A DNA stretch of 64,000 nt, from NCBI GenBank assembly GCA_002720865.1, contig PBIO01000025.1, positions 17 through 64,016 on the forward strand, in the 5' to 3' direction. Below are positions 29,088-52,499 of this stretch, piece by piece; the first letter of the stretch is position 1; each line of letters begins with the position of its first letter. The notes beneath the pieces are model-generated. The model did no database searches, had not been told where the DNA came from, and saw nothing but the letters and a program-made list of their open reading frames with translations. The stretch is from Halobacteriovorax sp. (GTDB lineage Bacteria; Bdellovibrionota; Bacteriovoracia; Bacteriovoracales; Bacteriovoracaceae). The position numbers were made by a program, and so were the translations under genes.

Positions 29088-29120
29088 ATTATACCATATG
29101 TCATGCTGTTTTGCACGAGG
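29088..29120 (-). promoter_or_regulatory. TTCGTGCAA-class promoter (P1)
   Basis: minus strand CTCGTGCAA, 17-nt spacer, TATAAT (29093-29088). Confidence 0.7.
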
Positions 29121-29135
29121 CTGTAACATTTATTT

Positions 29136-29351
29136 TTACCTGCCCCACCTGCGATAGTACTTGTCGTTCTCAGCTTGTACCTTCTTACGGGCATCGCCAT
29201 ATACGCGCCGCATAGCAGCTAGGTCACGGGCTTCTTCGCGCTTACGCTTCCTGACGTCATATGCTATATACACAAAAGCAACCACGCCACCTATCAGCAT
29301 ATTGATCGCTGTGATTGCCATTAGGTCTCCCCATTGGATTGTCTCTAACAT
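29136..29351 (-). CDS. small membrane protein with basic C-terminus
   Basis: start moved to ATG 29351 (AAGGAG RBS): MLETIQWGDLMAITAINMLIGGVVAFVYI... Confidence 0.6.
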   Translation of the reverse strand: MLETIQWGDLMAITAINMLIGGVVAFVYIAYDVRKRKREEARDLAAMRRVYGDARKKVQAENDKYYRRWGR

Positions 29352-29362
29352 ATTTTCTCCTT

Positions 29363-29635
29363 TTAGCCGGCGTTGAATTCTTCCGGCAATTCGAAGGGGT
29401 CGACCACATGCCGCACGTCCTTCAGTGTTCGTCGTTGATATGTGTGTGACCAATCAGCATGTGACCCGGGTACTAGTGCAACCAGACTTTCACCTGGCTG
29501 CGCATGTTTAGAACATACTGAGCTATAAGCTTCATCTCTATTTGGAGAGGCGTTGATGTTCACGACACGCGCGGGGGAAGAGCTAACTTCCGATACAAAA
29601 ACTGCTGTGTACATTTTGATTGGGCTCATAATCAT
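29363..29635 (-). CDS. hypothetical protein
   Basis: 90-aa ORF. Confidence 0.5.
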   Translation of the reverse strand: MIMSPIKMYTAVFVSEVSSSPARVVNINASPNRDEAYSSVCSKHAQPGESLVALVPGSHADWSHTYQRRTLKDVRHVVDPFELPEEFNAG

Positions 29636-29715
29636 ATTCTCAATTCATGAAGTACTTGAAGTAAATTGTAAAAACTCAATCGTTACTTCGCGACTTTTCC
29701 TTCCCTTGGTCCAGG

Positions 29716-29760
29716 ACAAAAGGTGGCGGGTGGGACCGACCAAGGAAACCCCACCCGCCG
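29716..29760 (-). terminator. intrinsic terminator after the RadA-like gene
   Basis: 10-bp stem GGCGGGTGGG/CCCACCCGCC followed by ACCTTTTG on the minus strand. Confidence 0.65.
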
Positions 29761-29789
29761 GCGATTCGAACGAATCACCATAAGGTGAC

Positions 29790-30539
29790 TTAGGCTGCGC
29801 TAACTCGAGCAACCTCCTTGAATCCGCGATTGTTCAGAGCCAGGAAGAAGGTGTGGCCACAGCCACCGAACCGGTTCTTCGTAGTCTGGAGGACTCGGCA
29901 ACCTTCAAGGTCCTTGTCCTTCGTCTCAACGGAAAGGTGCATCATGGCGTCAACCATGTGCTTAAGCTTATTACTTCCGGAAGCCTGGCCAGACTTGCTG
30001 ACCTGTCCGATGACAACCGCGTTGCAGTAATGCTCCTTGCAGTAGTCAGTGATCATTGCCAAGGCACGCTCAGCAGACCGGGAGTTGATGTGACCGTCAT
30101 TGTACTTACCATCATCCATACACTGGAGGGAGTCGACAATCAGGAAGAAAGGCTTACCAGGATTCTTCTTTCGAAGAGCATCACACTTCTTGAGGAGCGT
30201 AGGAACATGAGTTTCCTGACCCACCTTGAACCCGCCCTTGAGGCGAAGACGTTCAACAACCAGCTTGACCTGATAGAGGCTTTCCTCTGCAGTGTTAAAC
30301 ACCGCGGTAGCACCCTGACGGGTGAGGGCATTAGCCAGGGAGAGCATCATGGTCGTCTTACCTGAACCAGGCTCACCGGTGAAGAAGGTAACTGCGGACG
30401 GGGTAAATCCCTCACCGCCCAGGGCACAATCGACGTAGTCGAGGCCGGACTTTACCTTATTACGTAGCTGCTTCGGGACGTCAATGTCCAGAATGTTGGC
30501 GCCGAAATCGATGTCGTTTGTAGTAACTTTGAGCTTCAT
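29790..30539 (-). CDS. RecA-superfamily ATPase (RadA/KaiC-like, no Lon domain)
   Basis: CALGGEGFTPSAVTFFTGEPGSGKTTMM Walker A context as in RadA/Sms; Walker B FFLIVDSLQ. Confidence 0.75.
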   Translation of the reverse strand: MKLKVTTNDIDFGANILDIDVPKQLRNKVKSGLDYVDCALGGEGFTPSAVTFFTGEPGSGKTTMMLSLANALTRQGATAVFNTAEESLYQVKLVVERLRLKGGFKVGQETHVPTLLKKCDALRKKNPGKPFFLIVDSLQCMDDGKYNDGHINSRSAERALAMITDYCKEHYCNAVVIGQVSKSGQASGSNKLKHMVDAMMHLSVETKDKDLEGCRVLQTTKNRFGGCGHTFFLALNNRGFKEVARVSAA

Positions 30540-30598
30540 TTTTTCTTCCTTGGTCAGGTTTAGGAGTTGGGAACCATTCCCCCCTTCCTTATGTATCC

Positions 30599-30631
30599 AT
30601 TATACAATATTGTGGCAGATTTTGCACGAAC
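30599..30631 (-). promoter_or_regulatory. TTCGTGCAA-class promoter (P2)
   Basis: AAGTTCGTGCAAA, 17-nt spacer, TATAAT (30604-30599). Confidence 0.75.
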
Positions 30632-30655
30632 TTGCATGTCGAATAGTCATTTTTT

Positions 30656-30904
30656 TTACTTTTTTTGTGCTTTATTTAGGGCACCCATGATGGCCAGGGA
30701 GATGTTAGAGGCCTCAGGAGATGCAGTCTTGGGGGTAGGGTTAGCCATAAGCTGTACCGATCCCGTCCCTGGATCCATGTCTAGATGACCTGACCAGTAC
30801 CCCTCGATGACTACCTGGTAGATAAATCCAGGATTATTGGGGTCTAGACCTCGTGTTTTTAGCTCAGCCTGGACCCATTGATTTGCTTTAGGTGTCAACT
30901 TCAT
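30656..30904 (-). CDS. hypothetical protein
   Basis: 82 aa, ATGA overlap with the upstream VWA gene. Confidence 0.55.
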   Translation of the reverse strand: MKLTPKANQWVQAELKTRGLDPNNPGFIYQVVIEGYWSGHLDMDPGTGSVQLMANPTPKTASPEASNISLAIMGALNKAQKK

Positions 30905-32298
30905 GCTGCCTTCTTCCCCTTCATCTGAATGAGGAAGTCCCGCTTCGAAGCTTCGAAGTAGAGCTTCCGGTCAGGGGTAATTACCCATCCTCGCTTAAGG
31001 ATCGAAGGACCCGGGTCACAACACTCACCATCAGTGAGGATCAAGTACCCATCAAACCGATGACGATTCTTATTTGCATGTACCGTTGCAGCCCTAAAAT
31101 CAGTACCACCATAGCGAGTACGTTCCATTCCAGGTGCCCGATTCCGTCCCCACTCCCGCTCGGAGCTTTCATCAACCTCTGTATCAAAGTTAAAGATGGT
31201 GAACTTCGTCTTCTTGGCCAACTGCTTAAGCTCACCAAAGAGAAGGGAGAGATCCTCATCACTAACCGATCCACTCTGATCGATGTATACTGCGATTGAA
31301 GAGGTGTAGCCCTTTTGAAACCCGGGATGTACACCAGGATACTTGCGGTGGATCCGCCGGACGTTGCTAGCGCGGTTGGCGCGCCGGGTCATTCCGCAGA
31401 ACTTCTTAAGGACTGACTGCCAGGGAATCTCCTTGGAAATCAACTCTCGAATCATTGACTGGCCAGAAGCACCAACCGAACCCCATTGGCCGGACTGGTC
31501 ACACTTCTTAACAGCATCTTCAACTGCCTGCTTGACCTTGCCCTTAATAAGCTCACGATCCTCATCGGAAAGCTCATCCCAACCATCATGGCTATCCATG
31601 GTACCTGGCAATCCAGGAGCCGGTTGTCCCTGACCAGGTTGACCAGGTTGACCATCACCAGGCTGACCCTCACCCTCACCGTCACCAGGCTGACCTGGTG
31701 CAGGGGCAGGATTAGTCAATGCTTCCTGAACTTCATCATCAGCCATCAACTCGGCGAAATACCATTCGGCTGACTTTTCCTTGGGGAAGGATGCAATCTT
31801 TGCAGAGACTGTCTCAAACTGCTTGACCCTATCCGGTCCCATTGCGATCTTATCAGCCTCGCTCAGAGCCTTGAACTCCTTACCAGGTACCAAGCCACCC
31901 TCAGGCAACTCTTCCTCTGGAATCAGGCTGTTGATTGCAAGGTCAGTAGCGTAGTTCCAGACCAGGTGAGGCTCGTGGCGTCGTGTCGTGGTGTGTTCGA
32001 ACACCAGGTGGTAACACTCATGCTTAAGGAGACCCTTAATGTGCTTCGAAGGGAGCGCAGCAACAAAACGTGGGTTGTACCACATCTTGATATCACCGTC
32101 CTTGGCCAGGACACCGGCAGTGGGAATCGACTCCGACCGTACCTTGGTGATCTGACGAAGGATGTGGCTAAAGAATGGCTCCTCCCAAAGAAGATTAATC
32201 AGATGGGGATCAAGCTCAAATGCCTTAGCGGCAGCCTCAGAGGCGCGCTGCGTGTGGGCAAGTTCCGTGGATGTGGTGTCGTTTTTAGCCATGGCCAT
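30901..32298 (-). CDS. HExxH metallopeptidase-like + VWA domain protein (DUF2201/CobT-like partner of MoxR ATPases)
   Basis: HECYH motif, Pro/Gly/Gln-rich linker, MIDAS VYIDQSGSVS; start moved to ATG 32298 (AGGAAGGAAGG RBS) because a promoter lies inside the longer ORF. Confidence 0.75.
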   Translation of the reverse strand: MAMAKNDTTSTELAHTQRASEAAAKAFELDPHLINLLWEEPFFSHILRQITKVRSESIPTAGVLAKDGDIKMWYNPRFVAALPSKHIKGLLKHECYHLVFEHTTTRRHEPHLVWNYATDLAINSLIPEEELPEGGLVPGKEFKALSEADKIAMGPDRVKQFETVSAKIASFPKEKSAEWYFAELMADDEVQEALTNPAPAPGQPGDGEGEGQPGDGQPGQPGQGQPAPGLPGTMDSHDGWDELSDEDRELIKGKVKQAVEDAVKKCDQSGQWGSVGASGQSMIRELISKEIPWQSVLKKFCGMTRRANRASNVRRIHRKYPGVHPGFQKGYTSSIAVYIDQSGSVSDEDLSLLFGELKQLAKKTKFTIFNFDTEVDESSEREWGRNRAPGMERTRYGGTDFRAATVHANKNRHRFDGYLILTDGECCDPGPSILKRGWVITPDRKLYFEASKRDFLIQMKGKKAA

Positions 32299-32319
32299 TC
32301 CTTCCTTCCTTATAGTACT

Positions 32320-32352
32320 ATTATACCCTATAGAGGCGGATTTTGCACGAAC
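32320..32352 (-). promoter_or_regulatory. TTCGTGCAA-class promoter (P3)
   Basis: AAGTTCGTGCAAAA, 17-nt spacer, TATAAT (32325-32320). Confidence 0.75.
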
Positions 32353-32418
32353 TTGCATAACATTATTAATTATTTTGTATCGTCCTAAGCCCTTGATATT
32401 ATTAAGGTTTTTAGGCAA

Positions 32419-32694
32419 TTAAATAGCCTGCAACATGCTCAATGGGACGTCCCAATTCTGACCATGTCCGACACTACAAATAGCCTTTTTTCGTTTAACC
32501 CGTACGATGACGCCCTCCGTGTAACCATTCCGGCCAGTCCAGGATACCTTATCACCGGCATGTAGCGTACGACGCTTGACTGCAGATTGTCTATCTCGGA
32601 TTGACCTGAGGTGTTCAAGCACTGATCCATTAAGATCACGTAGCTGTCGGTCATCAAGGGTGTGGAGGTTGTTAATCATATCTGTGAGTGTCAT
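32419..32694 (-). CDS. small protein with C-terminal KOW-like segment
   Basis: HAGDKVSWTGRNGYTEGVIVRV. Confidence 0.55.
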   Translation of the reverse strand: MTLTDMINNLHTLDDRQLRDLNGSVLEHLRSIRDRQSAVKRRTLHAGDKVSWTGRNGYTEGVIVRVKRKKAICSVGHGQNWDVPLSMLQAI

Positions 32695-32741
32695 CTTGTC
32701 CTCGATCTAGTTAGCCAGGATGATCCCCAACCAACATGTAT

Positions 32742-32774
32742 ATTATACAATAGAGTTCGTAACTTTACACGAAT
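32742..32774 (-). promoter_or_regulatory. TTCGTGTAA-class promoter (P4)
   Basis: AATTCGTGTAAAG, 17-nt spacer, TATAAT (32747-32742). Confidence 0.7.
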
Positions 32775-32938
32775 TAGCTAAAGAAACCACCATAATATAG
32801 CAAGCCAATCATTAGTGGCAAATCTATAAATAGTGTAAGGGGTGCATTGTAATTGCCTTTCGGCTCACCGTGCTTAAGCAATGCTGCTGTAGTGTTAAAG
32901 GCTATAAGACAAATCATAATGATCTGGGGAATTCCCAT
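32774..32938 (-). CDS. small membrane protein (54 aa, not in ORF track)
   Basis: AGGAGAAGAAA RBS; MGIPQIIMICLIAF...LPLMIGLLYYGGFF. Confidence 0.5.
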   Translation of the reverse strand: MGIPQIIMICLIAFNTTAALLKHGEPKGNYNAPLTLFIDLPLMIGLLYYGGFFS

Positions 32939-32947
32939 TTTCTTCTC

Positions 32948-33043
32948 CTAGTAATGTCTATCGTTTTCAATTTTCATACCATGATACACACCTAATGCAT
33001 ATGCCATGGCTACAAATAATAGGCCTATAATAACTGCTAGCAT
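32948..33043 (-). CDS. small membrane peptide (31 aa, not in ORF track)
   Basis: AGGAAAGGAA RBS; MLAVIIGLLFVAMAYALGVYHG... Confidence 0.4.
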   Translation of the reverse strand: MLAVIIGLLFVAMAYALGVYHGMKIENDRHY

Positions 33044-33117
33044 TTCCTTTCCTGAAATGCGAGGGGCGAACCTTAGCCAGCATTACCTGTTACTAAGGCT
33101 GCACCCTCCTGGGTTCT

Positions 33118-34200
33118 TTAAACGTTTCGGCTAGCCTGAACTGCCTTGACGATAGTCTGACCAATCAGCTTGTGGATCTTCTGGATGTTCGGCAACTTCT
33201 GGGTAGCCGAAATGGCATTCCAAAGGGAGACCATCATTTCACCAGGAAGACTCTCAGCGAAGGCAGCCACGTTCTTAGCCTGGCTAGCTGTCCACTCGTT
33301 ATCTGTACAGTGGTTGGCCAACTTTTCAATCACCGCGTTGAGGCGATCGTTGGTCAGCTCCTTGACACGACCCTTAATGGAACCGTAGCTATCAAGGATG
33401 TCCTCGGCACTAACGATTGTCTCATAACCCTCGATGAAGGTAGTAAAGGCGATCGCGGCCTCGGTACCAACAAACCCCATCGCCGTAGCGTAGAATCCGT
33501 CGGCGCGCTTCTGGCCGGCCAGTTCGCTAGGAGCCATACCCATGTGGGTCAGCGAAGTAGCAAGGCGGTGCCATGAAGCGGGGTTCGGGCAAACCGTACC
33601 AGGCTCAACGCTACCAACGTCGACCCGGAGGTGCTGAGGATTCTGGCGGATGAAGTCAACAAGGACGTCATCAACGTTATTCTCACCAGCCCAGTTGATC
33701 CAATCAGCTGCAGTAGGCTCGAGGTCACAGACCCAAAAGCGGCGAAGAAGTGCCGGGTCCATGTCGTTAACATCATATTCTGAACCATGGTTGACAGCAG
33801 CAATCACCCGGGTCTGCGGGTGGAGGCGGTAAGGATTACCGTCCTTGTCGTTGCCAAGCTCTCGGTCCAGGACCAACTGGAAGAAAGACTGTTGGACGCC
33901 GGGGAGGGAGCGGTTAAGCTCATCCAGCATCAAAACAACAGGCTCTCGGCATGCCCGGATAAACCAGGATGGCATGCAGAAAGTCATGACACCATTTTCC
34001 TTCATACCCTCAAGATCAGGGTAACCACCAACATCACCTTCGGACATGGTAGAACCACGTACGTCGATAAAGGGCAGTCCAACGCTGTCCGCGACCTGCT
34101 TTCCGAGGAAAGACTTACCGACTCCGGTCGGTCCCCGCATGAGGATCGCGATGTCCGCGGGGAGGTTCGGGGCTACGATATTGAAAGTTTTGATGTCCAT
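33118..34200 (-). CDS. MoxR/CobS-like AAA+ ATPase (AAA_5 type)
   Basis: Walker A MRGPTGVGKS, Walker B VVLMLDELNRS, 360 aa. Confidence 0.85.
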   Translation of the reverse strand: MDIKTFNIVAPNLPADIAILMRGPTGVGKSFLGKQVADSVGLPFIDVRGSTMSEGDVGGYPDLEGMKENGVMTFCMPSWFIRACREPVVLMLDELNRSLPGVQQSFFQLVLDRELGNDKDGNPYRLHPQTRVIAAVNHGSEYDVNDMDPALLRRFWVCDLEPTAADWINWAGENNVDDVLVDFIRQNPQHLRVDVGSVEPGTVCPNPASWHRLATSLTHMGMAPSELAGQKRADGFYATAMGFVGTEAAIAFTTFIEGYETIVSAEDILDSYGSIKGRVKELTNDRLNAVIEKLANHCTDNEWTASQAKNVAAFAESLPGEMMVSLWNAISATQKLPNIQKIHKLIGQTIVKAVQASRNV

Positions 34201-34257
34201 TTTTTCTCCTTGGTCAAGAGGCTTGGAGGGCTAATCCCCTCCCCAACCTTCATATAT

Positions 34258-34290
34258 ATTATACCCCATGGGGAGGGAATTTGCACGAAC
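34258..34290 (-). promoter_or_regulatory. TTCGTGCAA-class promoter (P5)
   Basis: AAGTTCGTGCAAAT, 17-nt spacer, TATAAT (34263-34258). Confidence 0.75.
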
Positions 34291-34311
34291 TTGCACAATT
34301 AATTATGCTTT

Positions 34312-34671
34312 TTAAAGTTCAATTTCTCCACCAAGCTCTTCCTCATCGGAAACGTCTTCCAAGAGGTCAAATGGCTCTTCACCGGATGGGATTCCCATTT
34401 CTGCCGGTACATCAGAGGTGGCGTCAAGTTCAGATTCAAAAGATTCACGTGCTGCAACTCGGGCAGCGTCGCGTGTTTCCTCACAGTAGGCTCGAGCCAA
34501 CTTTCCAACAGAGAATTCTGCAAGAGGATTGCTGAGATCCGCACTGGCCGATACCACCCAGGCAGCGCCACGGGTTGGTGCACTACGACCGAAGAATAGC
34601 TTCCCAACCTTATACGGCTTCTTGTGGGTACGCTTAAGACCTGCAGTGTTTTCGTTACTTTGTTCAATCAT
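34312..34671 (-). CDS. hypothetical protein with acidic C-terminal tail
   Basis: AAGGAAAAGGAAAG RBS; ...DLLEDVSDEEELGGEIEL. Confidence 0.6.
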   Translation of the reverse strand: MIEQSNENTAGLKRTHKKPYKVGKLFFGRSAPTRGAAWVVSASADLSNPLAEFSVGKLARAYCEETRDAARVAARESFESELDATSDVPAEMGIPSGEEPFDLLEDVSDEEELGGEIEL

Positions 34672-34734
34672 TTTCTTTCCTTTTCCTTAGTGTGTATGTA
34701 GGCCAGAACCATTCCAGCCTCAACCTTTAGATAG

Positions 34735-34767
34735 ATTATATCCTGCCTCGACCAATTTTACACGAAG
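34735..34767 (-). promoter_or_regulatory. TTCGTGTAA-class promoter (P6)
   Basis: CTTCGTGTAAAA, 17-nt spacer, TATAAT (34740-34735). Confidence 0.7.
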
Positions 34768-34805
34768 ATTAAGCACTCGATGTACTTTTTTCTAAGTGGT
34801 TGATT

Positions 34806-35006
34806 TCATTGGACTTTTTTAAGTCCTGACAAGCTACTTGGATCTGCAATGATCGATGATCCTTGGGCCAGGCGTACATCGACGCTGTCAACAGCAATAA
34901 ATTCGATGACCCCGGTAATCAAAGATCCTTCCGGATCCAGCCGGAATTCTACTTCATCTCCGGCCTTTAAGTCCTTAATATCATTATGCTTTTCTTTATT
35001 CCTCAT
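34806..35006 (-). CDS. small KOW-like protein
   Basis: LKAGDEVEFRL...GVIEFIAV. Confidence 0.5.
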   Translation of the reverse strand: MRNKEKHNDIKDLKAGDEVEFRLDPEGSLITGVIEFIAVDSVDVRLAQGSSIIADPSSLSGLKKVQ

Positions 35007-35558
35007 CTATTCCTCAGTGGTGTTGCGGAGCGCCTTTGCTGGAACTCCCTTTATAACGTCCGGTCCAACCATGACGTCGACAACCCACTTGTTCGATGTC
35101 TGATATGTTTCGGAAATGATCATAACAATTTCACCCTTACGCAGCCCTCGAGGCGCGCCGTACGATCCCATCTCCCATCTGGAAATTTCCCGGGATACCT
35201 TGGCCAGTCCGGCCTCCAGCACTTGGGCAAATTGCATCTTCTTACCAGATGCACCAGGCACCATGGCTCGTCCACCCTGAGCCCACTGAATTGTACGTCG
35301 GTGGGTACCGGTAGCCTCAACCTTTGCCTTTCGGAGTTCAGCCTTCGCAGCGAGCTTTTCTGAACGCTTCTTTTCGGCGATATCAAACATATCGCGGAGC
35401 TCATCGATCTGAGCTAGCAATTCATTTACCTTATCAAAGTCATCATTAGCAGCTGCTTCATTCTTGAGCTCATGAAGTGCTTCAATCTCATCATTAAGCT
35501 TTGCGTTACGTGCGAGTAGCGCCTTTTTGAGAGTTGACTTGCTTGGTCTGCGGGCCAT
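35007..35558 (-). CDS. coiled-coil protein with C-terminal KOW-like segment
   Basis: 183 aa; basic/helical N-half; KGEIVMIISE...VVDVMVG. Confidence 0.6.
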   Translation of the reverse strand: MARRPSKSTLKKALLARNAKLNDEIEALHELKNEAAANDDFDKVNELLAQIDELRDMFDIAEKKRSEKLAAKAELRKAKVEATGTHRRTIQWAQGGRAMVPGASGKKMQFAQVLEAGLAKVSREISRWEMGSYGAPRGLRKGEIVMIISETYQTSNKWVVDVMVGPDVIKGVPAKALRNTTEE

Positions 35559-35581
35559 GTTTTCTCCTTGAATATGTATAT

Positions 35582-35614
35582 ATTATACCACATCATCTAG
35601 GTATTTGCACGAAA
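35582..35614 (-). promoter_or_regulatory. TTCGTGCAA-class promoter (P7)
   Basis: TTTCGTGCAAAT, 17-nt spacer, TATAAT (35587-35582). Confidence 0.75.
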
Positions 35615-35620
35615 GAGATC

Positions 35621-35650
35621 AAAAAAAAGAAGGCGACCCGAAGGCCGCCC
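35621..35650 (-). terminator. intrinsic terminator
   Basis: minus strand GGGCGGCCTTCGGGTCGCC hairpin followed by TTCTTTTTTTT. Confidence 0.7.
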
Positions 35651-35697
35651 TCTAAGCTATTAATATTATTACCATATTAGGTTACTAACCGGTCCCG

Positions 35698-35727
35698 TTG
35701 CATACGCGGAATTCACCTGCCTATAAT
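35698..35727 (+). promoter_or_regulatory. possible sigma70-like promoter on + strand
   Basis: TTGCAT, 18-nt spacer, TATAAT; no convincing downstream ORF. Confidence 0.3.
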
Positions 35728-36114
35728 ATATGCGGATACCCCGATCATCACATCGGCAACGAAGGTCTCCTGTCTCGCTTAACCTTAATTCATATTTCTC
35801 ATTTCCTTCAACACGTCCTCCCGGTGAGTCGCCGTTCGGATAGGACAGTAACATCTGATCGGAACGAAGTGATGTTCCCTCTGATCTTATCCTACCTATT
35901 TGAAGTATACCAGCTTATTTTGCGGTGTACATGCAAAAATAATTTTATCTCACTGTCCGAGCAATCCGTTAAGCGCATGGACCACCATCAGGAACACAGC
36001 CAGGCATAGACCTAACCACACCAATAATACTATAGTCGTACCCTTCATGAGCCTACCAGAGCCATTCATCCCATGCGTATAGAAACAGGAACGGGTATAT
36101 GTACCAAAATATGT

Positions 36115-36132
36115 GGAGTGGTTTAACACTCC
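36115..36132 (-). terminator. weak hairpin terminator candidate
   Basis: GGAGTG-GTTTAA-CACTCC stem-loop followed by ACATATTTTGG on the minus strand. Confidence 0.3.
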
Positions 36133-36170
36133 GAGTAGGCGCGCGGGTTAGCACGGATCCCAAGAGCTTT

Positions 36171-36305
36171 TTATTTTTCATCTTCATCTTTGCGCTTGTC
36201 ATCAGGCATGTATGTTACATTTGCCCATATGAATATCCCCCATCCCCCGATTACCAAGATCATTAAGATCAAGTTACCGATTACCTCTATAGTTTCGTAA
36301 CTCAT
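36171..36305 (-). CDS. small membrane protein (44 aa)
   Basis: MSYETIEVIGNLILMILVIGGWGIFIW...; TATAAT only 12 nt upstream and no SD, so possibly a near-leaderless mRNA. Confidence 0.4.
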   Translation of the reverse strand: MSYETIEVIGNLILMILVIGGWGIFIWANVTYMPDDKRKDEDEK

Positions 36306-36421
36306 ATTGCCAATACTATTATACTGCGGTCGCGAGCCGTGTATAAGAGCTGCCCTCACTTTTTATGGGGGCAGTTTCGGTCTCGGTGCTCCCTGATCTG
36401 CAGTGAGCTTTTTTGGTGGAG

Positions 36422-36453
36422 CGCGTGTAAAACAGGGTAGGGTGTGGTATAAT
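36422..36453 (+). promoter_or_regulatory. TTCGTGTAA-class promoter on the + strand (P10)
   Basis: GCGTGTAAAA, 17-nt spacer, TATAAT (36448-36453); the only + strand copy of the class. Confidence 0.65.
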
Positions 36454-36459
36454 AGTACT

Positions 36460-36627
36460 ATATGGTTAAGGAAGCACAGCATATGATTCGCGACGGCCCG
36501 TAGCTCGGTAGCACTCGGACAGCAGCACCGCTGCGCAACAGCCACTCTCGTGGGTGGGTGGGGCAGTTTGTCACTTTTTGGTGTACAGCGGCGCATAGAT
36601 AGATAAGGGCGAGAGCCCTTTTTTTTT
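36460..36627 (+). ncRNA. candidate small RNA (~170 nt) between promoter P10 and a terminator
   Basis: bounded by P10 and the AGGGC-GAGA-GCCCT-T9 terminator; only a 6-codon ORF inside; internal GCAGC/GCTGC and CCGCTG/CAGCGG pairings. Confidence 0.45.
36605..36627 (+). terminator. intrinsic terminator (+ strand)
   Basis: AGGGC GAGA GCCCT followed by nine T. Confidence 0.75.
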
Positions 36628-36849
36628 CGGCCGAGTTCCGGTACACTGCACTCTAGCATGTATTTCCCCTGTCGCTCACCCACGCCGATAGTCTGACGAG
36701 CCAGTAGGGCAATGGACTTTTGGCCACAACTGACAAAGCAAGAGGGCAGAAGTAACAGTAGCTAACCATCTATCAACCCATTATAGATAATTTACATCTT
36801 TCTGTTATACTACTAGCACATATAAGCAGTAGGATACTAATAGGAGGTA

Positions 36850-36963
36850 ATGATGTTGTCTATAGAGACTTTGCTATTATTGCTGATAGGATGTGTGTAC
36901 GTATGTGGTATGGTATCAGGTTACGGGCTATATATGTTATTGACTTATAAGAATGAGGAGTAG
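36850..36963 (+). CDS. small membrane peptide (37 aa)
   Basis: AGGAGG RBS; MMLSIETLLLLLIGCVYVCGMVSGYGLYMLL... Confidence 0.45.
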   Translation: MMLSIETLLLLLIGCVYVCGMVSGYGLYMLLTYKNEE

Positions 36964-37048
36964 GTGACTTACCTGCTTACTCTTCTGTTACTTACACACT
37001 CTTACTGTTTTTTAGTATTACCCGCCACGGAGCCGATAGTCACACGAG

Positions 37049-37228
37049 CTATGGGTCAATAGGTTTCCGCCCATCTAGTTCAGGGAAGTCGCCGTACTCA
37101 AGCATCATCAGTGTGCGCAGATTATTCATTTGCGCTCTATCGTTGACTACCTTAAGTTGATTATCAAGGTGTTCAATCTTTTCCTCGAGCTTATCAATAC
37201 CAAGAAGCCATTTCAGAAATTTACGCAC
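37049..37228 (-). CDS. small coiled-coil protein (59 aa, GTG start)
   Basis: GTGCGTAA overlap with the upstream stop; VRKFLKWLLGIDKLEEKIEHLDNQLKVV... Confidence 0.4.
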   Translation of the reverse strand: MRKFLKWLLGIDKLEEKIEHLDNQLKVVNDRAQMNNLRTLMMLEYGDFPELDGRKPIDP

Positions 37229-37397
37229 TGCTAATTACCGTAAGCATTTCTTTAGTTGCAACAACTTCTGTTTGAGACTCTTGGCATCTGACCTCATAAA
37301 CAAATCCCGTTCCCACAGAATATCTAACGACCATGATTAGTCCAAGCTCCTCGTTTCCAGATCTAGTTATAACTCTTACCAAATCACCGACTTTCAT
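37221..37397 (-). CDS. KOW-like MKxGDLV-family protein
   Basis: start ATG 37397: MKVGDLVRVITRSGNEELGLIMVV. Confidence 0.6.
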   Translation of the reverse strand: MKVGDLVRVITRSGNEELGLIMVVRYSVGTGFVYEVRCQESQTEVVATKEMLTVISSA

Positions 37398-37581
37398 TGA
37401 TAATACTCCACTTTGTATAGTCAAGTCGAGTCACCCAACTCCGACCATCATCACTTAGAATCCTCAACCGAGGGGTCTTTTGATACTCTCCTGTCTTAGG
37501 CGGCATCACTCCCAGTACTAGGGCAATGCAACCATGTGCCTTAATCAGGTCACCTTCTTTGACATGGTTACCAGGTTTCAT
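37384..37581 (-). CDS. KOW-like MKxGDLV-family protein
   Basis: start ATG 37581: MKPGNHVKEGDLIKA; ends IINESR with the 14-nt overlap. Confidence 0.55.
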   Translation of the reverse strand: MKPGNHVKEGDLIKAHGCIALVLGVMPPKTGEYQKTPRLRILSDDGRSWVTRLDYTKWSIINESR

Positions 37582-37745
37582 TGAATTGGCTCCATCAATC
37601 GTTGCAGTACCCAATTAAGCCGGCCGTCTGACCACTTAACAAGGTAGGTTGGATCTGCAGACTCAATAGCTTGGTGGTAACCAATAATGATACCCAATAG
37701 CCCACCTTCAGAGAGTTTATGTCTTACCATGTCACCGATCTTCAT
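37578..37745 (-). CDS. KOW-like MKxGDLV-family protein (55 aa, not in ORF track)
   Basis: MKIGDMVRHKLSEGGLLGIIIGY...; ATGA overlap downstream. Confidence 0.55.
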   Translation of the reverse strand: MKIGDMVRHKLSEGGLLGIIIGYHQAIESADPTYLVKWSDGRLNWVLQRLMEPIQ

Positions 37746-37747
37746 AG

Positions 37748-37993
37748 TCATCGCAACAACTCTCCATACGCTTCTTTTCCATACTCTTCCCAGTCATCCA
37801 GGGACCACAGATCATCTCGATCTGTCCAGAAGGTATATGGATCCAGGGTCGGTCGACCGGTAAGTGATCGCTTACTAGCCATGACCTCGAAATTCCCTTC
37901 TCTTCCACCTCTGCCAGTAGTAACCACAATCCCAGTTTGCAGGTCATTATGATAGTAGTCTTCGAAAATCACCACGTCACCAAGCTTAAGCAT
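37748..37993 (-). CDS. KOW-like family protein
   Basis: start ATG 37993 (AGGAAAAAG RBS): MLKLGDVVIFEDYY...GIVVTTG. Confidence 0.55.
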   Translation of the reverse strand: MLKLGDVVIFEDYYHNDLQTGIVVTTGRGGREGNFEVMASKRSLTGRPTLDPYTFWTDRDDLWSLDDWEEYGKEAYGELLR

Positions 37994-38003
37994 ATTCTTT
38001 TTC

Positions 38004-38267
38004 CTATCGTCGCTCGATGCCAAACCACTCTGGGCGGCCACACTCATTCCACTCGGCAGTCGTCATCAGATCCTCACGCTCTCGCCAGATAATCATCTCC
38101 TCATAAATCCCATGTTCCGGGAGTGCGCATACCTTCACCAAGTAGTGGCCGGCTTCGTATCCGGTGATGACTCCTGCCATGATAGCGTTTGCGGCGAAGT
38201 CTTCGTAGTGAACGACGTCGTTAATCTTAAGCACTATATCTATCTTTCTAAAGTAGCGAGGATCCAT
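38004..38267 (-). CDS. KOW-like family protein (diverged)
   Basis: LKINDVVHYEDF...AGVITGY; own promoter. Confidence 0.55.
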   Translation of the reverse strand: MDPRYFRKIDIVLKINDVVHYEDFAANAIMAGVITGYEAGHYLVKVCALPEHGIYEEMIIWREREDLMTTAEWNECGRPEWFGIERR

Positions 38268-38284
38268 TCCCCACCAACATTTAG

Positions 38285-38317
38285 ATTATACCATGAAGGA
38301 AGTAGAAATGCACGATA
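38285..38317 (-). promoter_or_regulatory. TTCGTGCAA-class promoter variant (P8)
   Basis: ATCGTGCATTT, 17-nt spacer, TATAAT (38290-38285). Confidence 0.6.
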
Positions 38318-38382
38318 ATAACTTTATTGTGAAATAAAAGTTTGTATTGTAGCCATACGTAATATTACAACCTGAGGTTAAT

Positions 38383-38577
38383 ATGTTAGATAGATATAGA
38401 GAGTGGATTTCTCATATGTCAGATGGTCAAGCTGACCTAATGGCATCTTTTGGTTACCTGGTGTGGTGTAGCTTACTAGTAACCGGAATATTATCATACG
38501 GTGCTGGTGCTTTAATACCTATGGTTCTATCTTTTGGCCTGGCCGGTGTATTAACTGCATCCGTATACATTCATTAA
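38383..38577 (+). CDS. small membrane protein
   Basis: GAGG RBS; two hydrophobic helices. Confidence 0.55.
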   Translation: MLDRYREWISHMSDGQADLMASFGYLVWCSLLVTGILSYGAGALIPMVLSFGLAGVLTASVYIH

Positions 38578-40217: not shown

Positions 40218-40362
40218 GTGCGTCCGTCCTTTGTGGCAAATATGTCTAAGTATAAATATTTCGAACATGTTCAAGCGCTTCTCAGAATTTTGAGTTATTT
40301 TACTCGAGTCAATGTATCGCTTATAATGTTTATAACGCTTATTCGACAGGAGATTTAAATCA

Positions 40363-41261: not shown

Positions 41262-41732
41262 ATGATTAAAATAATTTCTGCCGCCTTCGGTATTGCTTTT
41301 GTACTGGCCGCCGCCTGCAGTCCGCAAGTTGAACCGAATACAGGGCATACGTCCCAAGTCCCGAGCCTTTCAGCTTGCCATATATTATATGACTCAGAAA
41401 CACAAACATGGGTAAGGGCAATATTGCCTCAAAACAGTACACAGTTCGAATTATGCGATCCACTCATCGATGATTACAACGTTGAATACGAAGCACAGTG
41501 CCAGCTAATCAATTACGGTACTGTTTTAGGCTATGAAACAGAGCCTCAAAGATTCGAGCTTCTAGAAGAATATTGTTTGGATGAGCCTATCGACGGTCGA
41601 TGTGATACCTTTAACTGCCAAGACGTACATAAGGCAATTAATCCGGACGCGGGTTGGGCATATCCCTCAGGTTGTGTTGCAATATTAAATCGTAATGAAG
41701 GTACATGTACAGCAATGTGGAACGATCAGTAA
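41262..41732 (+). CDS. Cys-rich lipoprotein
   Basis: lipobox LAAAC. Confidence 0.6.
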   Translation: MIKIISAAFGIAFVLAAACSPQVEPNTGHTSQVPSLSACHILYDSETQTWVRAILPQNSTQFELCDPLIDDYNVEYEAQCQLINYGTVLGYETEPQRFELLEEYCLDEPIDGRCDTFNCQDVHKAINPDAGWAYPSGCVAILNRNEGTCTAMWNDQ

Positions 41733-42632: not shown

Positions 42633-42808
42633 AATATTATGCTCCTTAAGTTATTTTTTTTCAGAACTAAACCTAAACAGCGATATCGCATGTGCGATAT
42701 GCCTATAAATATGGAGCTACTGTATGATATAATACCGTATATATAATTTCACATAATATATGTAGACAGTTTAGATAGTTAATAATAGAACCCTAAGCTG
42801 GAAAAACG

Positions 42809-43150
42809 TTGAGACTTGCAATAATACTTTTAGCATTCCTCGCGTGCGCACCTGAACAGCAGGAACTTTTTGACCGATCGGTATTTGAAGATACGTGGTG
42901 GGAAGTTAATACACTGGGATACAATGCATGTTTTCTTGTACATCAATCTGGGGAAATATTTATATTTGAGCCAGATTATGGAACATATTTTGCAGGTTCA
43001 TGGGAGTATGAAGATCCCGGAATGTATCACGTTGAATCCGACTCACTAAATAATGCAGAAGTACTAGAAATTAAAAAGAAGAAAGACTGTTGGAAAATTT
43101 CAGGATACTCTATTTTAAAAATAGAAGCATGCGCATGTACATTACTATAA
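42809..43150 (+). CDS. lipoprotein
   Basis: TTG start; lipobox AFLAC. Confidence 0.55.
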   Translation: MRLAIILLAFLACAPEQQELFDRSVFEDTWWEVNTLGYNACFLVHQSGEIFIFEPDYGTYFAGSWEYEDPGMYHVESDSLNNAEVLEIKKKKDCWKISGYSILKIEACACTLL

Positions 43151-44817: not shown

Positions 44818-45531
44818 TCAATCTTCTATTGCATGTATACCTTTATTTCTTTGATAAGCCTGGACAGTTGTAGGAAATAAGTCTGCCGCAATTTCTAGAC
44901 ATGCCATGGCGACCTGTTGGATCTCCCACTGTGCACCTTCATGTATGCGTAAATCGATGAACTTTAATAGATTACCAAGGTTCACAGTGCCATAATATTG
45001 GGTGTACATATTTTGTGGTAATATCCCGCGTGCTTGCTCACGGCAAACACCCGCCTCGATCATTCTGTTAAATAAGTCAAGAGACATCTGATGGTGCAAT
45101 CCGACCATTTCATCACAATCACTACCGCAGGAAAGGATTGGATTAATTAGCCCTTCGGTATTGGATGCTTGCCGGTTTGACTTATGCTGCGTCCTGAACT
45201 CTTTCGGTTCATAAAACTGAATATCGAAATCGGTATATCTCCTACTAATCTCGTTATAGCTCCATGTTCGATGCCTATGATGCTGGCTACGAATAAATAA
45301 AGGTACTACAAATCGAAATGTTATTGAGCAGTGTTCCAATGTACTAGTATGCTTGTGCCGAATTAAATAGCTTATCAGCTTAATATCTCGTTCATCCATA
45401 TGCTTCTTTTGTTTTCCAAAAGAGACCCTAGCACTATTAACTACAGTAAGATCAGAACCCATATGTTGAACATATTCTACTGCTCCCACTCCATCATTGT
45501 ATAGCCCTATAGATTTTGTATATTTCATCAT
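44818..45531 (-). CDS. thyX: flavin-dependent thymidylate synthase
   Basis: RHRHRTWSYNEISRRY contains the ThyX RHRxxS motif; 237 aa. Confidence 0.9.
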   Translation of the reverse strand: MMKYTKSIGLYNDGVGAVEYVQHMGSDLTVVNSARVSFGKQKKHMDERDIKLISYLIRHKHTSTLEHCSITFRFVVPLFIRSQHHRHRTWSYNEISRRYTDFDIQFYEPKEFRTQHKSNRQASNTEGLINPILSCGSDCDEMVGLHHQMSLDLFNRMIEAGVCREQARGILPQNMYTQYYGTVNLGNLLKFIDLRIHEGAQWEIQQVAMACLEIAADLFPTTVQAYQRNKGIHAIED

Positions 45532-49738: not shown

Positions 49739-49913
49739 TAATCGACCCCACGTTACACTCACTAATTAATACTAAAGTTTTAAGATCACACCATTTGTCA
49801 CATTCGACCCAACCCTGAAATGCTACCCACGCGTACCCTTCATCTATAGATGTTATTAGACCGAGCCCTAAATGCTTATGAATAACATGCTTTACCAGGT
49901 CGCCGGCTTTCAT
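49731..49913 (-). CDS. KOW-like MKxGDLV-family protein
   Basis: MKAGDLVKHVIHK...GLITS. Confidence 0.6.
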   Translation of the reverse strand: MKAGDLVKHVIHKHLGLGLITSIDEGYAWVAFQGWVECDKWCDLKTLVLISECNVGSINE

Positions 49914-50619: not shown

Positions 50620-50824
50620 GAGCCACCTCAAATTTATCTGTAGCAAAGTCAGAAACCGTTGCCTTCCGACCATGGTATGGGATAGGCTGGACCCATTCTA
50701 CACGAATGTGCTTAATACCATCCTTTGATATCGACGGACCGGCAATGATGATACCGAGCTGACCAAAAAACCATTTGGCGTATGTTCCATTATCTGTAAA
50801 CATTACTACATCACCGATCTTCAC
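50609..50824 (-). CDS. KOW-like MKxGDLV-family protein
   Basis: GTG start with AGGGGA RBS: (M)KIGDVVMFTDN...GIIIAG. Confidence 0.6.
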   Translation of the reverse strand: MKIGDVVMFTDNGTYAKWFFGQLGIIIAGPSISKDGIKHIRVEWVQPIPYHGRKATVSDFATDKFEVAHEA

Positions 50825-50825
50825 T

Positions 50826-51119
50826 TTATTCCCCTACTAGTTCTTGTGCAATTTTTTCTGATAGCCATACATATGGATCACCATCCCTTGCTTTTTGTGT
50901 ACCATATGGCATTTCGTCACGATAATATTCTAGAAATATTTCATAAGGTGATATGGGCCAGCCGGTAACTGGATCTTTACGAGAAGTAGTAGCAAACCCT
51001 ACATCATCGCCGTCAAGGACGAATGCCAACGTTGCAGCAATTTCTTGTGCATTTAGGCCGATTCCGTATTCATGAACAAGGCCGGTCAAAAAATGACCTG
51101 TATCTAAAACTTTACTCAC
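50826..51119 (-). CDS. hypothetical protein
   Basis: 97 aa, GTG start in a GTGAGTAA overlap. Confidence 0.5.
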   Translation of the reverse strand: MSKVLDTGHFLTGLVHEYGIGLNAQEIAATLAFVLDGDDVGFATTSRKDPVTGWPISPYEIFLEYYRDEMPYGTQKARDGDPYVWLSEKIAQELVGE

Positions 51120-51321
51120 TGATTACCTCAATCAAATCTTTTTGGATTGTACTAATTCGATCACCATTAGGTGCATTACGTTCGAACCACATAACCTCCG
51201 CACAAGTATATGCAGAGCCTACCGACCCATTTGATGCCTTTCTTTTAAAGGTGCGCATTCCCATAAAGAGACCCATCTCTTCAGGGTATTTTTTATTTTT
51301 TACCAAATCACCCGGCTTCAT
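51112..51321 (-). CDS. KOW-like MKxGDLV-family protein
   Basis: start ATG 51321: MKPGDLVKNKKY. Confidence 0.6.
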   Translation of the reverse strand: MKPGDLVKNKKYPEEMGLFMGMRTFKRKASNGSVGSAYTCAEVMWFERNAPNGDRISTIQKDLIEVISE

Positions 51322-51502
51322 TAATTGCCTCAACATCCTTTCGCATATTACGTCCAATAGCACCATCCAAAAAATTCCAGCTTACATAAACCCAATTTGT
51401 TTCAAGTTTAGTAATAATACCAACAGCGCTAGGGTCATGACCCTCTGTAAATCTTACCAAGTCTCCAACTTTCAAAAGAAGCCGTTTACCATATGATTTC
51501 AT
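51308..51502 (-). CDS. KOW-like family protein
   Basis: MKSYGKRLLLKVGDLVRF...GIITK. Confidence 0.55.
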   Translation of the reverse strand: MKSYGKRLLLKVGDLVRFTEGHDPSAVGIITKLETNWVYVSWNFLDGAIGRNMRKDVEAINEAG

Positions 51503-51735
51503 ACAATCACCTCAAAAGTACTTTGGCCATAATTGCCGCAGCGTACCGTTTCGCCATCGACGGAAAGCACAACGTCACAGTAACCAGATAGAGGCGGATT
51601 ATTAAGCCTATCCGGCCGGACATCAATTACCACCCCAACATGCCCAGGCTCGATGGGCTTCCACCCACGGCTCTCATTGACTACTGGGTTTGTGCGTACG
51701 TACATAACATTTCTTACCATGTCACCGATTTTCAT
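51499..51735 (-). CDS. KOW-like MKxGDLV-family protein
   Basis: start ATG 51735: MKIGDMVRNVMY...GVVIDV. Confidence 0.6.
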   Translation of the reverse strand: MKIGDMVRNVMYVRTNPVVNESRGWKPIEPGHVGVVIDVRPDRLNNPPLSGYCDVVLSVDGETVRCGNYGQSTFEVIV

Positions 51736-51925
51736 TTTTAATCTCCTTAAGGTCGCCAGTATCAGCGCCCATTGTTTCACCGTTATCGTAAAGCACCAAC
51801 CATTCCCATTCAAGAATATCTCCTGCAGCAAGAGAGCTGGTGCCTTTACCCACTTCAATATTGGGACCGTCGATTACAATACCACTCCTACCGAGGGCAT
51901 AATCAAAAATCAACTTACCAATCAT
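51722..51925 (-). CDS. KOW-like family protein (diverged)
   Basis: start ATG 51925 (GGAG RBS): MIGKLIFDYALGRSGIVIDG. Confidence 0.5.
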   Translation of the reverse strand: MIGKLIFDYALGRSGIVIDGPNIEVGKGTSSLAAGDILEWEWLVLYDNGETMGADTGDLKEIKNENR

Positions 51926-51926
51926 C

Positions 51927-52166
51927 TTATCTCCAAAGAGTGACGAGAGTTCCAAACTCCCGATCGAAAGTATAAAGTAGGCCCTCATAATCCGATAGCC
52001 TCATCTCGTCAAGAACACGTTCGGTATACATATCATCATATCCCAACTTCTTGCAGAGACTTGAGGCAAGGCCTAATAGATAATATGCATTACCCTTTGG
52101 GCCGGTAAGATCAACTTCAATCGGCGTTGGGCCCCGCGGACGATCTCTCAAAGATTTGATAGCCAT
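51927..52166 (-). CDS. hypothetical protein
   Basis: 79-aa ORF. Confidence 0.5.
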   Translation of the reverse strand: MAIKSLRDRPRGPTPIEVDLTGPKGNAYYLLGLASSLCKKLGYDDMYTERVLDEMRLSDYEGLLYTFDREFGTLVTLWR

Positions 52167-52441
52167 TATACAACCTCCACATAATTTGTGGTCTGGTCAG
52201 ACCAGGTAGGTGTTCCGTTAACTGGAGGGGTAACAATACGGCCAACCCGGCGATCTTCTTCCTTACCTCCAAAAACATCACGATCCACAAGGATACGATA
52301 TCGTTGGCATCCCTCGATGTGATCGAAACCAATAACCTCACCCTCAACGTAACATGCTCGTTCTCCAGAAAGGTCGCGACCATAACCATCATCCTGAGCA
52401 AAGTCGAACGAACGAACTCGATTTCCAATTTGAATGTCCAT
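52166..52441 (-). CDS. KOW-like family protein (diverged, G+C-rich)
   Basis: MDIQIGNRVRSFDF...GEVIGF; own TTCGTGCAA-class promoter. Confidence 0.55.
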   Translation of the reverse strand: MDIQIGNRVRSFDFAQDDGYGRDLSGERACYVEGEVIGFDHIEGCQRYRILVDRDVFGGKEEDRRVGRIVTPPVNGTPTWSDQTTNYVEVV

Positions 52442-52466
52442 AATGTTTCCTCCTTGGTATGGTTAT

Positions 52467-52499
52467 ATTATACAACAGGAGGCACCAAATTGCACGAAA
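52467..52499 (-). promoter_or_regulatory. TTCGTGCAA-class promoter (P9)
   Basis: TTTCGTGCAATT, 17-nt spacer, TATAAT (52472-52467). Confidence 0.7.

Follow-up and report, generated by a model that had tools for sequence, protein, structure and literature searches.

A conserved promoter family with a non-canonical box at the -35 position in a clade of uncultured marine jumbo phages

The early and middle promoters of phage T4 differ in how the -35 position is used. T4 early promoters have the composition 'UP/-35/TGn/-10', with a -35 element that matches the sigma-70 consensus well, and they need no phage factor (Hinton 2010, PMC2988021). In the middle promoters, which involve MotA and AsiA, a near-perfect -10 is combined with a phage-specific box that replaces the -35 element (PMC2988021, PMC6755090). 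This MotA box has the sequence (a/t)(a/t)(a/t)TGCTTtA, is centred at -30, and is separated from the -10 by 12±1 bp (PMC2988021). In this study, we analyzed a stretch of 64,000 nucleotides (nt) of contig PBIO01000025.1, called the window throughout, which lies on the 176,782-bp Tara Oceans scaffold TARA_SAMEA2622841 scaffold_20, binned as 'Halobacteriovorax sp.' The window carries ten sites at which a GTGYAW box is followed, after exactly 17 nt, by a TATAAT -10 hexamer. We conclude that these sites are very probably real promoters of one class and that they belong to a real, conserved promoter family with a non-canonical box at the -35 position. In our reading, they are strong sigma-70-type bipartite promoters whose box at the -35 position is specific to the phage lineage, and the class is confined to one clade of marine jumbo phages, all uncultured. 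The fuller statement, that the box is read by a phage-supplied factor, is put forward tentatively, at a little less than an even chance.

All ten sites, of which only one is on the plus strand, had been located in the original prediction, and our search returned exactly the same coordinates. Together with the G+C-rich island that contains nine of them, they are the following.

29088..29117, minus strand: promoter copy 1, CGTGCAAA-N16-TATAAT, which precedes an open reading frame (ORF) of 63 amino acids (aa) at 28876-29067.
30599..30628, minus strand: promoter copy 2, which precedes a KaiC/RecA-like ATPase gene at 29790-30539.
32320..32349, minus strand: promoter copy 3, which precedes a DUF2201 VWA/metallopeptidase-like gene at 30901-32298.
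32742..32771, minus strand: promoter copy 4, which precedes a 91-aa ORF at 32419-32694.
34258..34287, minus strand: promoter copy 5, which precedes a MoxR-like AAA ATPase gene at 33118-34200.
34735..34764, minus strand: promoter copy 6, which precedes a 119-aa ORF at 34312-34671.
35582..35611, minus strand: promoter copy 7, which directly follows the terminator at 35653-35628 and precedes a 183-aa ORF at 35007-35558.
36424..36453, plus strand: promoter copy 8, the only plus-strand copy, with a short transcript whose longest ORF has 6 codons.
38285..38314, minus strand: promoter copy 9, with the box CGTGCATT, which precedes an ORF ending at 38004; its start, at 38252 or at a downstream GTG, is uncertain.
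52467..52496, minus strand: promoter copy 10, a positional outlier, which precedes a 91-aa ORF at 52166-52441 and diverges from a TATAAT promoter without a box at 52614 (plus strand).
26000..38500: G+C-rich island, with a G+C content of 0.45-0.51 versus about 0.38 in the flanks.

Dinucleotide shuffles of the window gave a mean of 0.17 matches to GTGYAW-N17-TATAAT (maximum, 2), compared with the ten observed, so that the motif is enriched about 60-fold. With up to two mismatches allowed in CGTGYAAA-N16-TATAAT, we obtained 11 matches against 1.34 expected, namely the ten copies and a single extra site, at 59587, that sits within an ORF; because the relaxed pattern added only this one site, the promoter class is discrete. 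The window contains 23 CGTGYAW heptamers, ten of which have a TATAAT partner and are the promoter copies, and the other 13 have no -10 partner. None of the 86 TATAAT hexamers of the window has a TTGACA partner, and no other recurring box is apparent at their -35 position. The class is limited to one genome region, with no match at positions 1-29000 of the window or in an extra 10 kb beyond its right-hand end (L171).

The -10 hexamer is a perfect TATAAT and the spacing is 17 nt in all ten copies. The box consensus is TTCGTGYAAA, the end of which lies 16 bp from the -10. Most copies had been predicted to share a TCGTG context, and the flank TTCGTG(C/T)AA is indeed present in seven of the ten; the remaining three read CTCGTG, CGCGTG, and ATCGTG. 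GTGYAA agrees with TTGACA at three of six positions (T-34, G-33, and A-30) and departs from it at G-35, Y-32, and A-31. A G occupies -13 in nine copies and a true TGn is present in four, and most copies are A/T-rich over the 30 nt that precede the box (A/T fraction of 0.47-0.83 versus 0.52 locally). The bases after the -10 are conserved family-wide as TATAAT-A-n-A followed by ATGT. This ATAnATGT start region, and the hairpin that follows it in several leaders, are consistent with a predicted transcription start 6-8 nt past TATAAT.

Every copy is intergenic and co-oriented with its downstream unit. The original prediction placed each site 20-60 nt before a ribosome-binding site (RBS) and start codon, which holds for the nine minus-strand sites (RBS present, 20-63 nt from the -10 to the start codon) but not for the plus-strand site (36425), which precedes only a 6-codon ORF and runs to a terminator at 36605-36620. 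Several sites were also said to follow a terminator or the stop codon of the previous gene. Most promoters other than copy 7 do begin 3-70 nt past the preceding stop codon, but a consensus terminator scan found one clear intrinsic terminator directly before a promoter (35653-35628) and no others. Copy 3 falls inside the over-long ORF 30901-32418 and forces the shorter gene model that had been proposed, since a start at ATG 32298 retains the whole Pfam DUF2201_N/DUF2201 match. The genes behind the promoters are G+C-rich, as noted earlier, with values of 0.47-0.58 for the nine ORFs behind the minus-strand copies versus 0.41 for the window.

We used the AAA ATPase encoded at 33118-34200 as a query and obtained 74 related loci from IMG/VR viral contigs of up to 293 kb. 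The strict motif occurs in 48 of the 74, often 60-90 nt upstream of the ATPase start, and the most enriched upstream 7-mers in these loci, counted with no motif assumed, were GCGTGTA, CGTGCAA, GTATAAT, and CGTGTAA. A spacing test was then anchored solely on a TATAAT followed by an RBS and a start codon, which gave 158 sites in loci of intermediate G+C content (≥0.37) and 274 in an AT-rich subclade. At the 158 sites, GTGYAW was present at 17 nt in 68 cases, at 18 nt in one, and at 15, 16, or 19 nt in none. At the 274 sites, it was present at 17 nt in 59 cases and at 18 nt in 54 (113 of 274 in all), and at 16 nt in one; only two sites in all loci fell off the usual spacing. TTGACW was found at 0 of the 432 gene-proximal TATAAT sites at any spacing, and TTGACA is no commoner upstream of genes than inside them, which supports the earlier remark that the -35 element differs from TTGACA. 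The -10 in the relatives is mostly TATAAT, with the variants TATTAT, TACAAT, and TAAATT, and in two loci (L018 and L021) the box is shifted, to CTGTAA at 19 nt. A study of Bdellovibrio promoters contained no matching motif.

The motif also stays with particular genes. It lies upstream of the orthologues of the genes behind copies 5, 3, and 2, that is, of the AAA ATPase in 48 of 70 loci, of the VWA/metallopeptidase-like protein in 29 of 67, and of the KaiC-like ATPase in 30 of 44, and it is kept ahead of orthologues that share 50-80% protein identity, even where the flanks diverge. As a module, the promoter-gene units show conserved synteny in 44-70 related loci. The same G+C-rich island surrounds the promoter cluster in the relatives L001, L002, and L008-L020 and, by this comparison, appears to be ancestral to the clade. 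Since the units are syntenic and the island is clade-wide, we regard them as an old conserved module and not as morons; together with the single clear terminator, this argues against the resemblance to moron cassettes that the original prediction had drawn. The matches could also be taken for chance occurrences or for remnants of a repeated mobile cassette, and the start sites do rest on sequence prediction. That explanation is barely credible, and we consider it effectively refuted: the motif is enriched about 60-fold, its copies are intergenic and co-oriented, it is conserved before diverged orthologues, and the box-to--10 spacers are unrelated in sequence, so that recent duplication does not account for the copies.

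The non-consensus bases G-35, Y-32, and A-31 are conserved across subclades whose G+C content ranges from 27 to 50%, and the retention of mismatching bases over such a range argues that they are selected by a reader distinct from the canonical region 4. The box at the -35 position is both non-canonical and under selection, and a reader different from the standard sigma-70 region 4 is a reasonable inference. A perfect -10 with a second element at fixed spacing is the signature of a sigma-70-family holoenzyme acting in a single complex, and the box is probably contacted by a protein in the initiation complex. In the mechanism that we propose, each copy would comprise an A/T-rich tract, (T)TCGTGYAAA at -35, a spacer of 17 nt with (T/G)G at its end, TATAAT, and an A/T-rich start (TATAAT-ATAnATGT), and the bacterial RNA polymerase (RNAP) holoenzyme would bind both elements in one complex. 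The -10 would be read by region 2 of a group-1-type sigma factor, presumably that of the host; the -10, the G at -13/-14, and the A/T-rich tract would fit contacts by a group-1 sigma (regions 2 and 3) and by the C-terminal domain of the alpha subunit. The box would be read at the region-4 position by a non-canonical module, most simply a region-4-type module supplied by the phage, which would make the class a phage-private code; the alternative is the sigma factor of a host lineage with an unusual region 4. About half of the copies would add a stable 5'-end hairpin ahead of the RBS. Together, the promoters would produce many short, partly nested transcripts over a conserved gene block, rich in G+C, that comprises small ORFs, the genes for an AAA ATPase, a VWA/metallopeptidase-like protein, and a KaiC-like ATPase, and one small RNA.

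The box could instead be an operator. RNAP would then need nothing but the perfect or extended -10, and a repressor or activator of the phage, bound at GTGYAA, would time the whole block. A perfect -10 with G at -13/-14 is able to work without a -35 element, and in three copies (30628-30640, 32349-32361, and 34287-34299, all minus strand) the box is preceded, at a distance of exactly 10 bp, by a second TGCAA (TGCAAgttcGTGCAAA), an arrangement compatible with tandem or dimeric binding. This upstream repeat is missing from the other copies and from the family profile, however, and the single-base rigidity of the 17-nt spacing over hundreds of sites fits joint recognition in one complex better. 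We therefore consider an operator function very improbable.

As for a box reader encoded by the phage, we place its probability just below even. Three findings speak for it: the non-canonical box is kept in subclades of 27-50% G+C, the window encodes a stand-alone sigma region 4.2 helix-turn-helix (HTH) protein, and in one relative the promoters of sigma-like genes have no box. The protein in the window is the following.

2642..2920, plus strand: candidate box reader (not established), a 92-aa protein with four invariant cysteines in its N-terminal part and a sigma region 4.2 HTH (TRMRICQIEK).

This protein had been described as a stand-alone protein similar to sigma region 4, and our analysis bears this out. 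It matches Pfam Sigma70_r4 (E = 9e-10) and aligns with region 4.2 of Thermus SigA, and its AlphaFold2 model (predicted local distance difference test score, 79) has top Foldseek matches that are almost all sigma-A region 4. The N-terminal half is a four-cysteine module without sigma similarity, and the protein is not part of a full sigma with a region 2; what it carries is a genuine sigma region 4.2 HTH that stands alone. All 69 distinct homologues, on contigs of 30-60% G+C, have the same recognition helix, TRMRICQIEK. In favor of a role as box reader, no other protein in the window is sigma-like, and at least 7 contigs have both this protein and the motif or a shifted variant. Its own gene has no box, as should be the case for the gene of a regulator. 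Against this role, the motif is absent around the homologues' genes in 80 other contigs (880 kb). In distant relatives, TTGTACA-N17-18-TAC..TATACC precedes the region-4 gene, and this sequence fits the helix code of the protein better than GTGYAA does. With the evidence thus mixed, we consider it unlikely that the 92-aa protein is the reader.

The region-4 gene and the neighboring PhoH gene are divergently arranged, and in many distant relatives the upstream gene is likewise divergent, which suggests that the divergent pairing with the region-4 gene is old. TGTACA is about 3-fold enriched upstream of genes, and there may be a second, weaker bipartite class, TGTACA-N16-18-TAWWNT, with 5 sites in the window versus 0.88 expected.

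26393-26421, minus strand: TGTACA-N16-18-TAWWNT site.
35904-35931, minus strand: TGTACA-N16-18-TAWWNT site.
41682-41711, minus strand: TGTACA-N16-18-TAWWNT site.
42937-42966, plus strand: TGTACA-N16-18-TAWWNT site.
43112-43141, minus strand: TGTACA-N16-18-TAWWNT site.

Both this class and another candidate, TGTAYAAT, are only mildly enriched. GTTTAC-N16-18 was rejected as a promoter class, as it was not enriched; in the ATPase loci, many of the GTTTACT sites inspected were coding, several of them in a P-loop-like GEPGxGKT stretch, and the 7-mer enrichment itself had been seen in the loci of the region-4 protein.

One relative bears on whether sigma fragments could act together. L181, from a 123-kb contig, has ten motif copies in 5.5 kb and encodes, within this promoter block, two paralogous proteins of 154 and 160 aa (1791-2255, plus strand, and 7496-7978, minus strand) that consist of sigma region 2 and a remnant of region 4.1 without a 4.2 HTH; Pfam detects Sigma70_r2 only. 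Each of the two genes has its own promoter, with a shared TGGTATAAT-ATATCTATAC core (-10 and start region) that lacks the GTGYAA box present in the ten other L181 promoters, and each of these box-less promoters is preceded by the hairpin GGTCA-TTTTTT-TGACC. Strong box-less promoters ahead of an ORF number only five across the loci of intermediate G+C content, and two of them are those of the L181 sigma genes. This layout would be expected if the box promoters depended on the products of the box-less genes, and it raises the possibility of a split sigma. About 45 clusters of region-2-only proteins of 155-160 aa occur in metagenomes.

Two arrangements of this kind can be distinguished. In one, the protein with the cysteine (Zn) module and region 4.2 would sit on the beta-flap in place of host region 4 and read the box, sometimes with a region-2-only partner; such sigma fragments acting in trans strike us as rather unlikely. 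In the other, a complete or split phage sigma would replace the host sigma on the core enzyme, a region-2-only protein reading the -10 and the stand-alone region-4 protein the box. The L181 pair, whose promoters repeat the -10 and start region without the box, and the wide distribution of the 92-aa family favor this arrangement, and single-HTH 'minimal sigmas' have been noted in jumbo phages, with no promoter tied to them (PMC7824862). On the other side, a hidden Markov model search of the window, 20 kb of its flanks, and 2.7 Mb of related loci found region-2-only sigma genes in L181 alone, so the idea raised by L181 does not transfer to the present phage. Moreover, the two fragments were seen in separate genomes (the region-4 protein in the window, the region-2-only proteins in L181), and the region-4 helix code does not fit GTGYAA. 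We consider a phage sigma that reads both elements improbable.

Several points weigh against a phage-supplied reader. The start sites are sequence predictions, and the phage is uncultured. The restriction of region-2-only sigma genes to L181 counts here as well. The HTH is the same in L018 and L021 despite their shifted box, and the homologues of the 92-aa protein span 30-60% G+C, with the high-G+C carriers not among the matches listed in two IMG/VR motif scans. In sigma-70, R584 reads C:G at -31, and E585 and R588 read G:C at -33 (PMC2613000). The helix of the 92-aa protein has TRMRICQ in place of TRERIRQ, with R584 kept and the changes E585M and R588C; under the sigma-70 code, such a helix should select C at -31 but no G at -33, the reverse of GTGYAA. 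Furthermore, the same architecture (UP-like tract, -35 element, partial TGn, perfect -10, and clustering) is that of T4 early promoters, for which no phage factor is needed (PMC2988021), and a host primary sigma with an altered region 4 could suffice, as sigma-70 R584A prefers A at -31, the base found in GTGYAA (PMC2613000).

These last points lead to the explanation that the copies are early-class promoters used by the unmodified host holoenzyme alone, with GTGYAA preferred or tolerated by region 4 of the host sigma, and that they out-compete host promoters just after infection. The dense clusters of strong promoters before small ORFs, with perfect -10 hexamers, A/T-rich upstream tracts, and partial TGn, are what this explanation would lead one to expect, as is the position of the L181 sigma-like genes inside the promoter region, where early genes for a next-stage factor would be found. 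GTGYAA also keeps T-34 and G-33 of TTGACA, and the shift in preference toward A at -31 is known from R584 substitutions (PMC2613000). The absence of TTGACW from all 432 TATAAT sites and the lack of TTGACA enrichment upstream of genes are difficult to reconcile with it, however. Conservation of G-35, Y-32, and A-31 in subclades of very different G+C content would require all of the hosts to have an unusual region 4, and we know of no bacterial lineage with a GTGYAA-like -35 consensus. We regard use by the host holoenzyme alone as possible but, on balance, doubtful.

The leaders downstream of the promoters are of two types, a short one (20-25 nt) that leads straight into the RBS and a long one (32-63 nt) that opens with a stable hairpin. 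Per-sequence folding predicted such hairpins in five of the ten copies, with energies of -12.6 to -18.1 kcal/mol.

30562..30589, minus strand: copy-2 5'-leader hairpin, -14.5 kcal/mol, z -2.3.
32710..32735, minus strand: copy-4 5'-leader hairpin, -12.6 kcal/mol.
34220..34248, minus strand: copy-5 5'-leader hairpin, -18.1 kcal/mol, z -3.2.
34694..34725, minus strand: copy-6 5'-leader hairpin, -13.3 kcal/mol.
38248..38284, minus strand: copy-9 5'-leader hairpin, -13.9 kcal/mol, z -2.4.
35628..35653, minus strand: intrinsic terminator with an 11-bp stem and T8, immediately upstream of copy 7.
36454..36630, plus strand: transcription unit of about 170 nt, from copy 8 to the terminator at 36605-36620 with its T-run; putative small RNA or micro-ORF leader.

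Among 148 sites of the family, 23% have leaders that fold at z < -1.5. The stems differ in sequence between orthologous leaders (for example, GGGGAA/TTCCCC versus TTCCC/GGGAA), and RNAalifold returned no consensus structure (0 pairs) for orthologous leaders, a result that we attribute to indels, the hairpins being too variable in length and position to align. The leader hairpin is thus supported sequence by sequence only. The plus-strand unit is conserved in L001, L002, and L010, and the minus-strand ORF that overlaps it is not conserved. Its transcript had no match in Rfam and folds no better than shuffles (z = 0).

Two further sites of the window stand apart from the class. A strong box-less TATAAT promoter (TGGTGTATAAT) at 52614-52619 (plus strand), divergent from copy 10, lies ahead of a 106-aa coiled-coil-like ORF (52637-52957) with no family match. 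At 19865-19870 (minus strand), in TTGGTATAAT-TGTACTATG, an ATG lies 9 nt past the -10, and the product may be a leaderless or very short-leader mRNA for a basic protein of about 95 aa (19568-19855). In the 237-nt gap upstream of the gene at 41733-42632, there is a perfect 8-bp inverted repeat, ATATCGCA-TG-TGCGATAT (42683-42700), that is operator-like.

The wider context points to the scaffold being that of an uncultured marine jumbo phage. Nearly all of its genes lie on one strand and most have no family match, the related viral contigs in IMG/VR reach 293 kb, and its gene content includes PIN-PhoH, a weak tubulin/FtsZ-like protein, PrkA-DUF444-SpoVR, ThyX, Hsp20, an MT-A70 methylase, and a genuine transfer-messenger RNA (tmRNA). 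A near-identity DNA search of GenBank phages found nothing, nor did protein searches for cultured relatives with the 92-aa protein, the tubulin-like protein, and a 474-aa ORF. A Tara Oceans metagenome-assembled genome (MAG), the one labelled 'Halobacteriovorax sp.', encodes a protein identical to the 92-aa protein. We rejected MAG binning as a guide to the host, because relatives of the 92-aa protein turn up in inconsistent taxa (Methylococcaceae, Legionellales, Flavobacteriales, and archaea), which marks them as mis-binned phage contigs.

PIN-PhoH is encoded at 1206-2513 (minus strand) and the tubulin/FtsZ-like protein at 2917-4128 (minus strand); the latter scores 30.8 bits, under the Pfam cut-off, and has no GenBank phage match. 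The tmRNA (4143-4505, minus strand; Rfam RF00023, 117 bits; tag ANNNDNFEYALAA) lies directly downstream of a 66-aa ORF (4511-4711) similar to Hc1, the chlamydial histone H1-like protein, and is probably co-transcribed with it, as the two adjoin; the plus-strand ORF 4287-4784 that overlaps the tmRNA is spurious. The trio of PrkA serine kinase, DUF444 (YeaH-like), and SpoVR at 8068-12546 (minus strand) is a bacterial stress- and sporulation-associated operon carried here by a phage, and PrkA is 30-33% identical to homologues in Thermus phages and metagenomic huge phages. Other auxiliary genes encode an MT-A70 DNA methyltransferase (16923-17504), Hsp20 (22435-22875), and ThyX (44818-45531), all on the minus strand. 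A 293-aa protein (39393-40274, minus strand) has a C terminus that matches the C-terminal domain of ribosomal protein L7/L12 (E = 1e-11). To the left of the window, three consecutive giant ORFs of 941, 905, and >1470 aa (L173, 10331-20318) had no Pfam, PHROG, or PDB match, and the 941-aa ORF had only weak matches to metagenomic huge phages of 460-640 kb.

If the box is read by a phage-supplied factor, these promoters would represent a second, mechanistically different route to sigma appropriation, in abundant uncultured marine jumbo phages, and would offer synthetic biology a potentially useful orthogonal -35/-10 promoter code. Should sigma fragments act in trans, the 92-aa protein would be the -35-reading half that redirects host RNAP to the G+C-rich gene block. 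Even on a conservative reading, the motif marks the (probably early) transcription units of the clade, corrects gene starts such as that of 30901-32298, and brings to light two features invisible to ORF-based annotation, a small RNA unit and a hairpin that recurs in the 5' leaders.

Early clusters of large lytic phages, such as the SPO1 host-takeover module, consist of short genes with individual strong promoters and strong RBSs and with occasional terminators, and the SPO1 early promoters are canonical sigma-A promoters. The block described here is a similarly compact set of short genes, but it is a G+C-rich island that includes conserved ATPase and VWA genes. Two-piece sigma factors, such as T4 gp55 with gp33, Bacillus subtilis SigO-RsoA, and the 'minimal' sigmas of group 2 jumbo phages (PMC7824862), share with the present phages the occurrence of stand-alone fragments, region-4-only in the window and region-2-only in L181. 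They differ in that T4 late promoters have no element at the -35 position and gp33 does not read DNA, while the fragments here come from separate genomes. T4 early promoters resemble the family in forming strong clusters before small early-type ORFs, with an excellent -10, a TGn-like element, A/T-rich tracts, additional conserved positions outside the host consensus, and a box that occupies the true -35 position (PMC2988021); they differ in their near-consensus -35 element, compared with a match at three of six positions and conserved mismatches here. The MotA-box analogy of the original prediction did not hold in detail, as the box lies 16-17 bp from the -10 and not 12±1 bp, and Pfam detected neither MotA nor AsiA among the approximately 130 proteins of the window, with the remaining ~110 kb of the scaffold and the rest of the genome outside that scan. 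T4 middle promoters do have in common with the family a near-perfect -10, a phage-specific box in place of the -35 element, and a small phage protein that is related to or acts on region 4 (PMC2988021, PMC6755090). Apart from the sequence and position of the box, they differ in that the candidate here is itself a region-4 HTH instead of a double-wing protein with a remodeller. The closest functional counterparts of this promoter family are the T4 early and T4 middle promoters.

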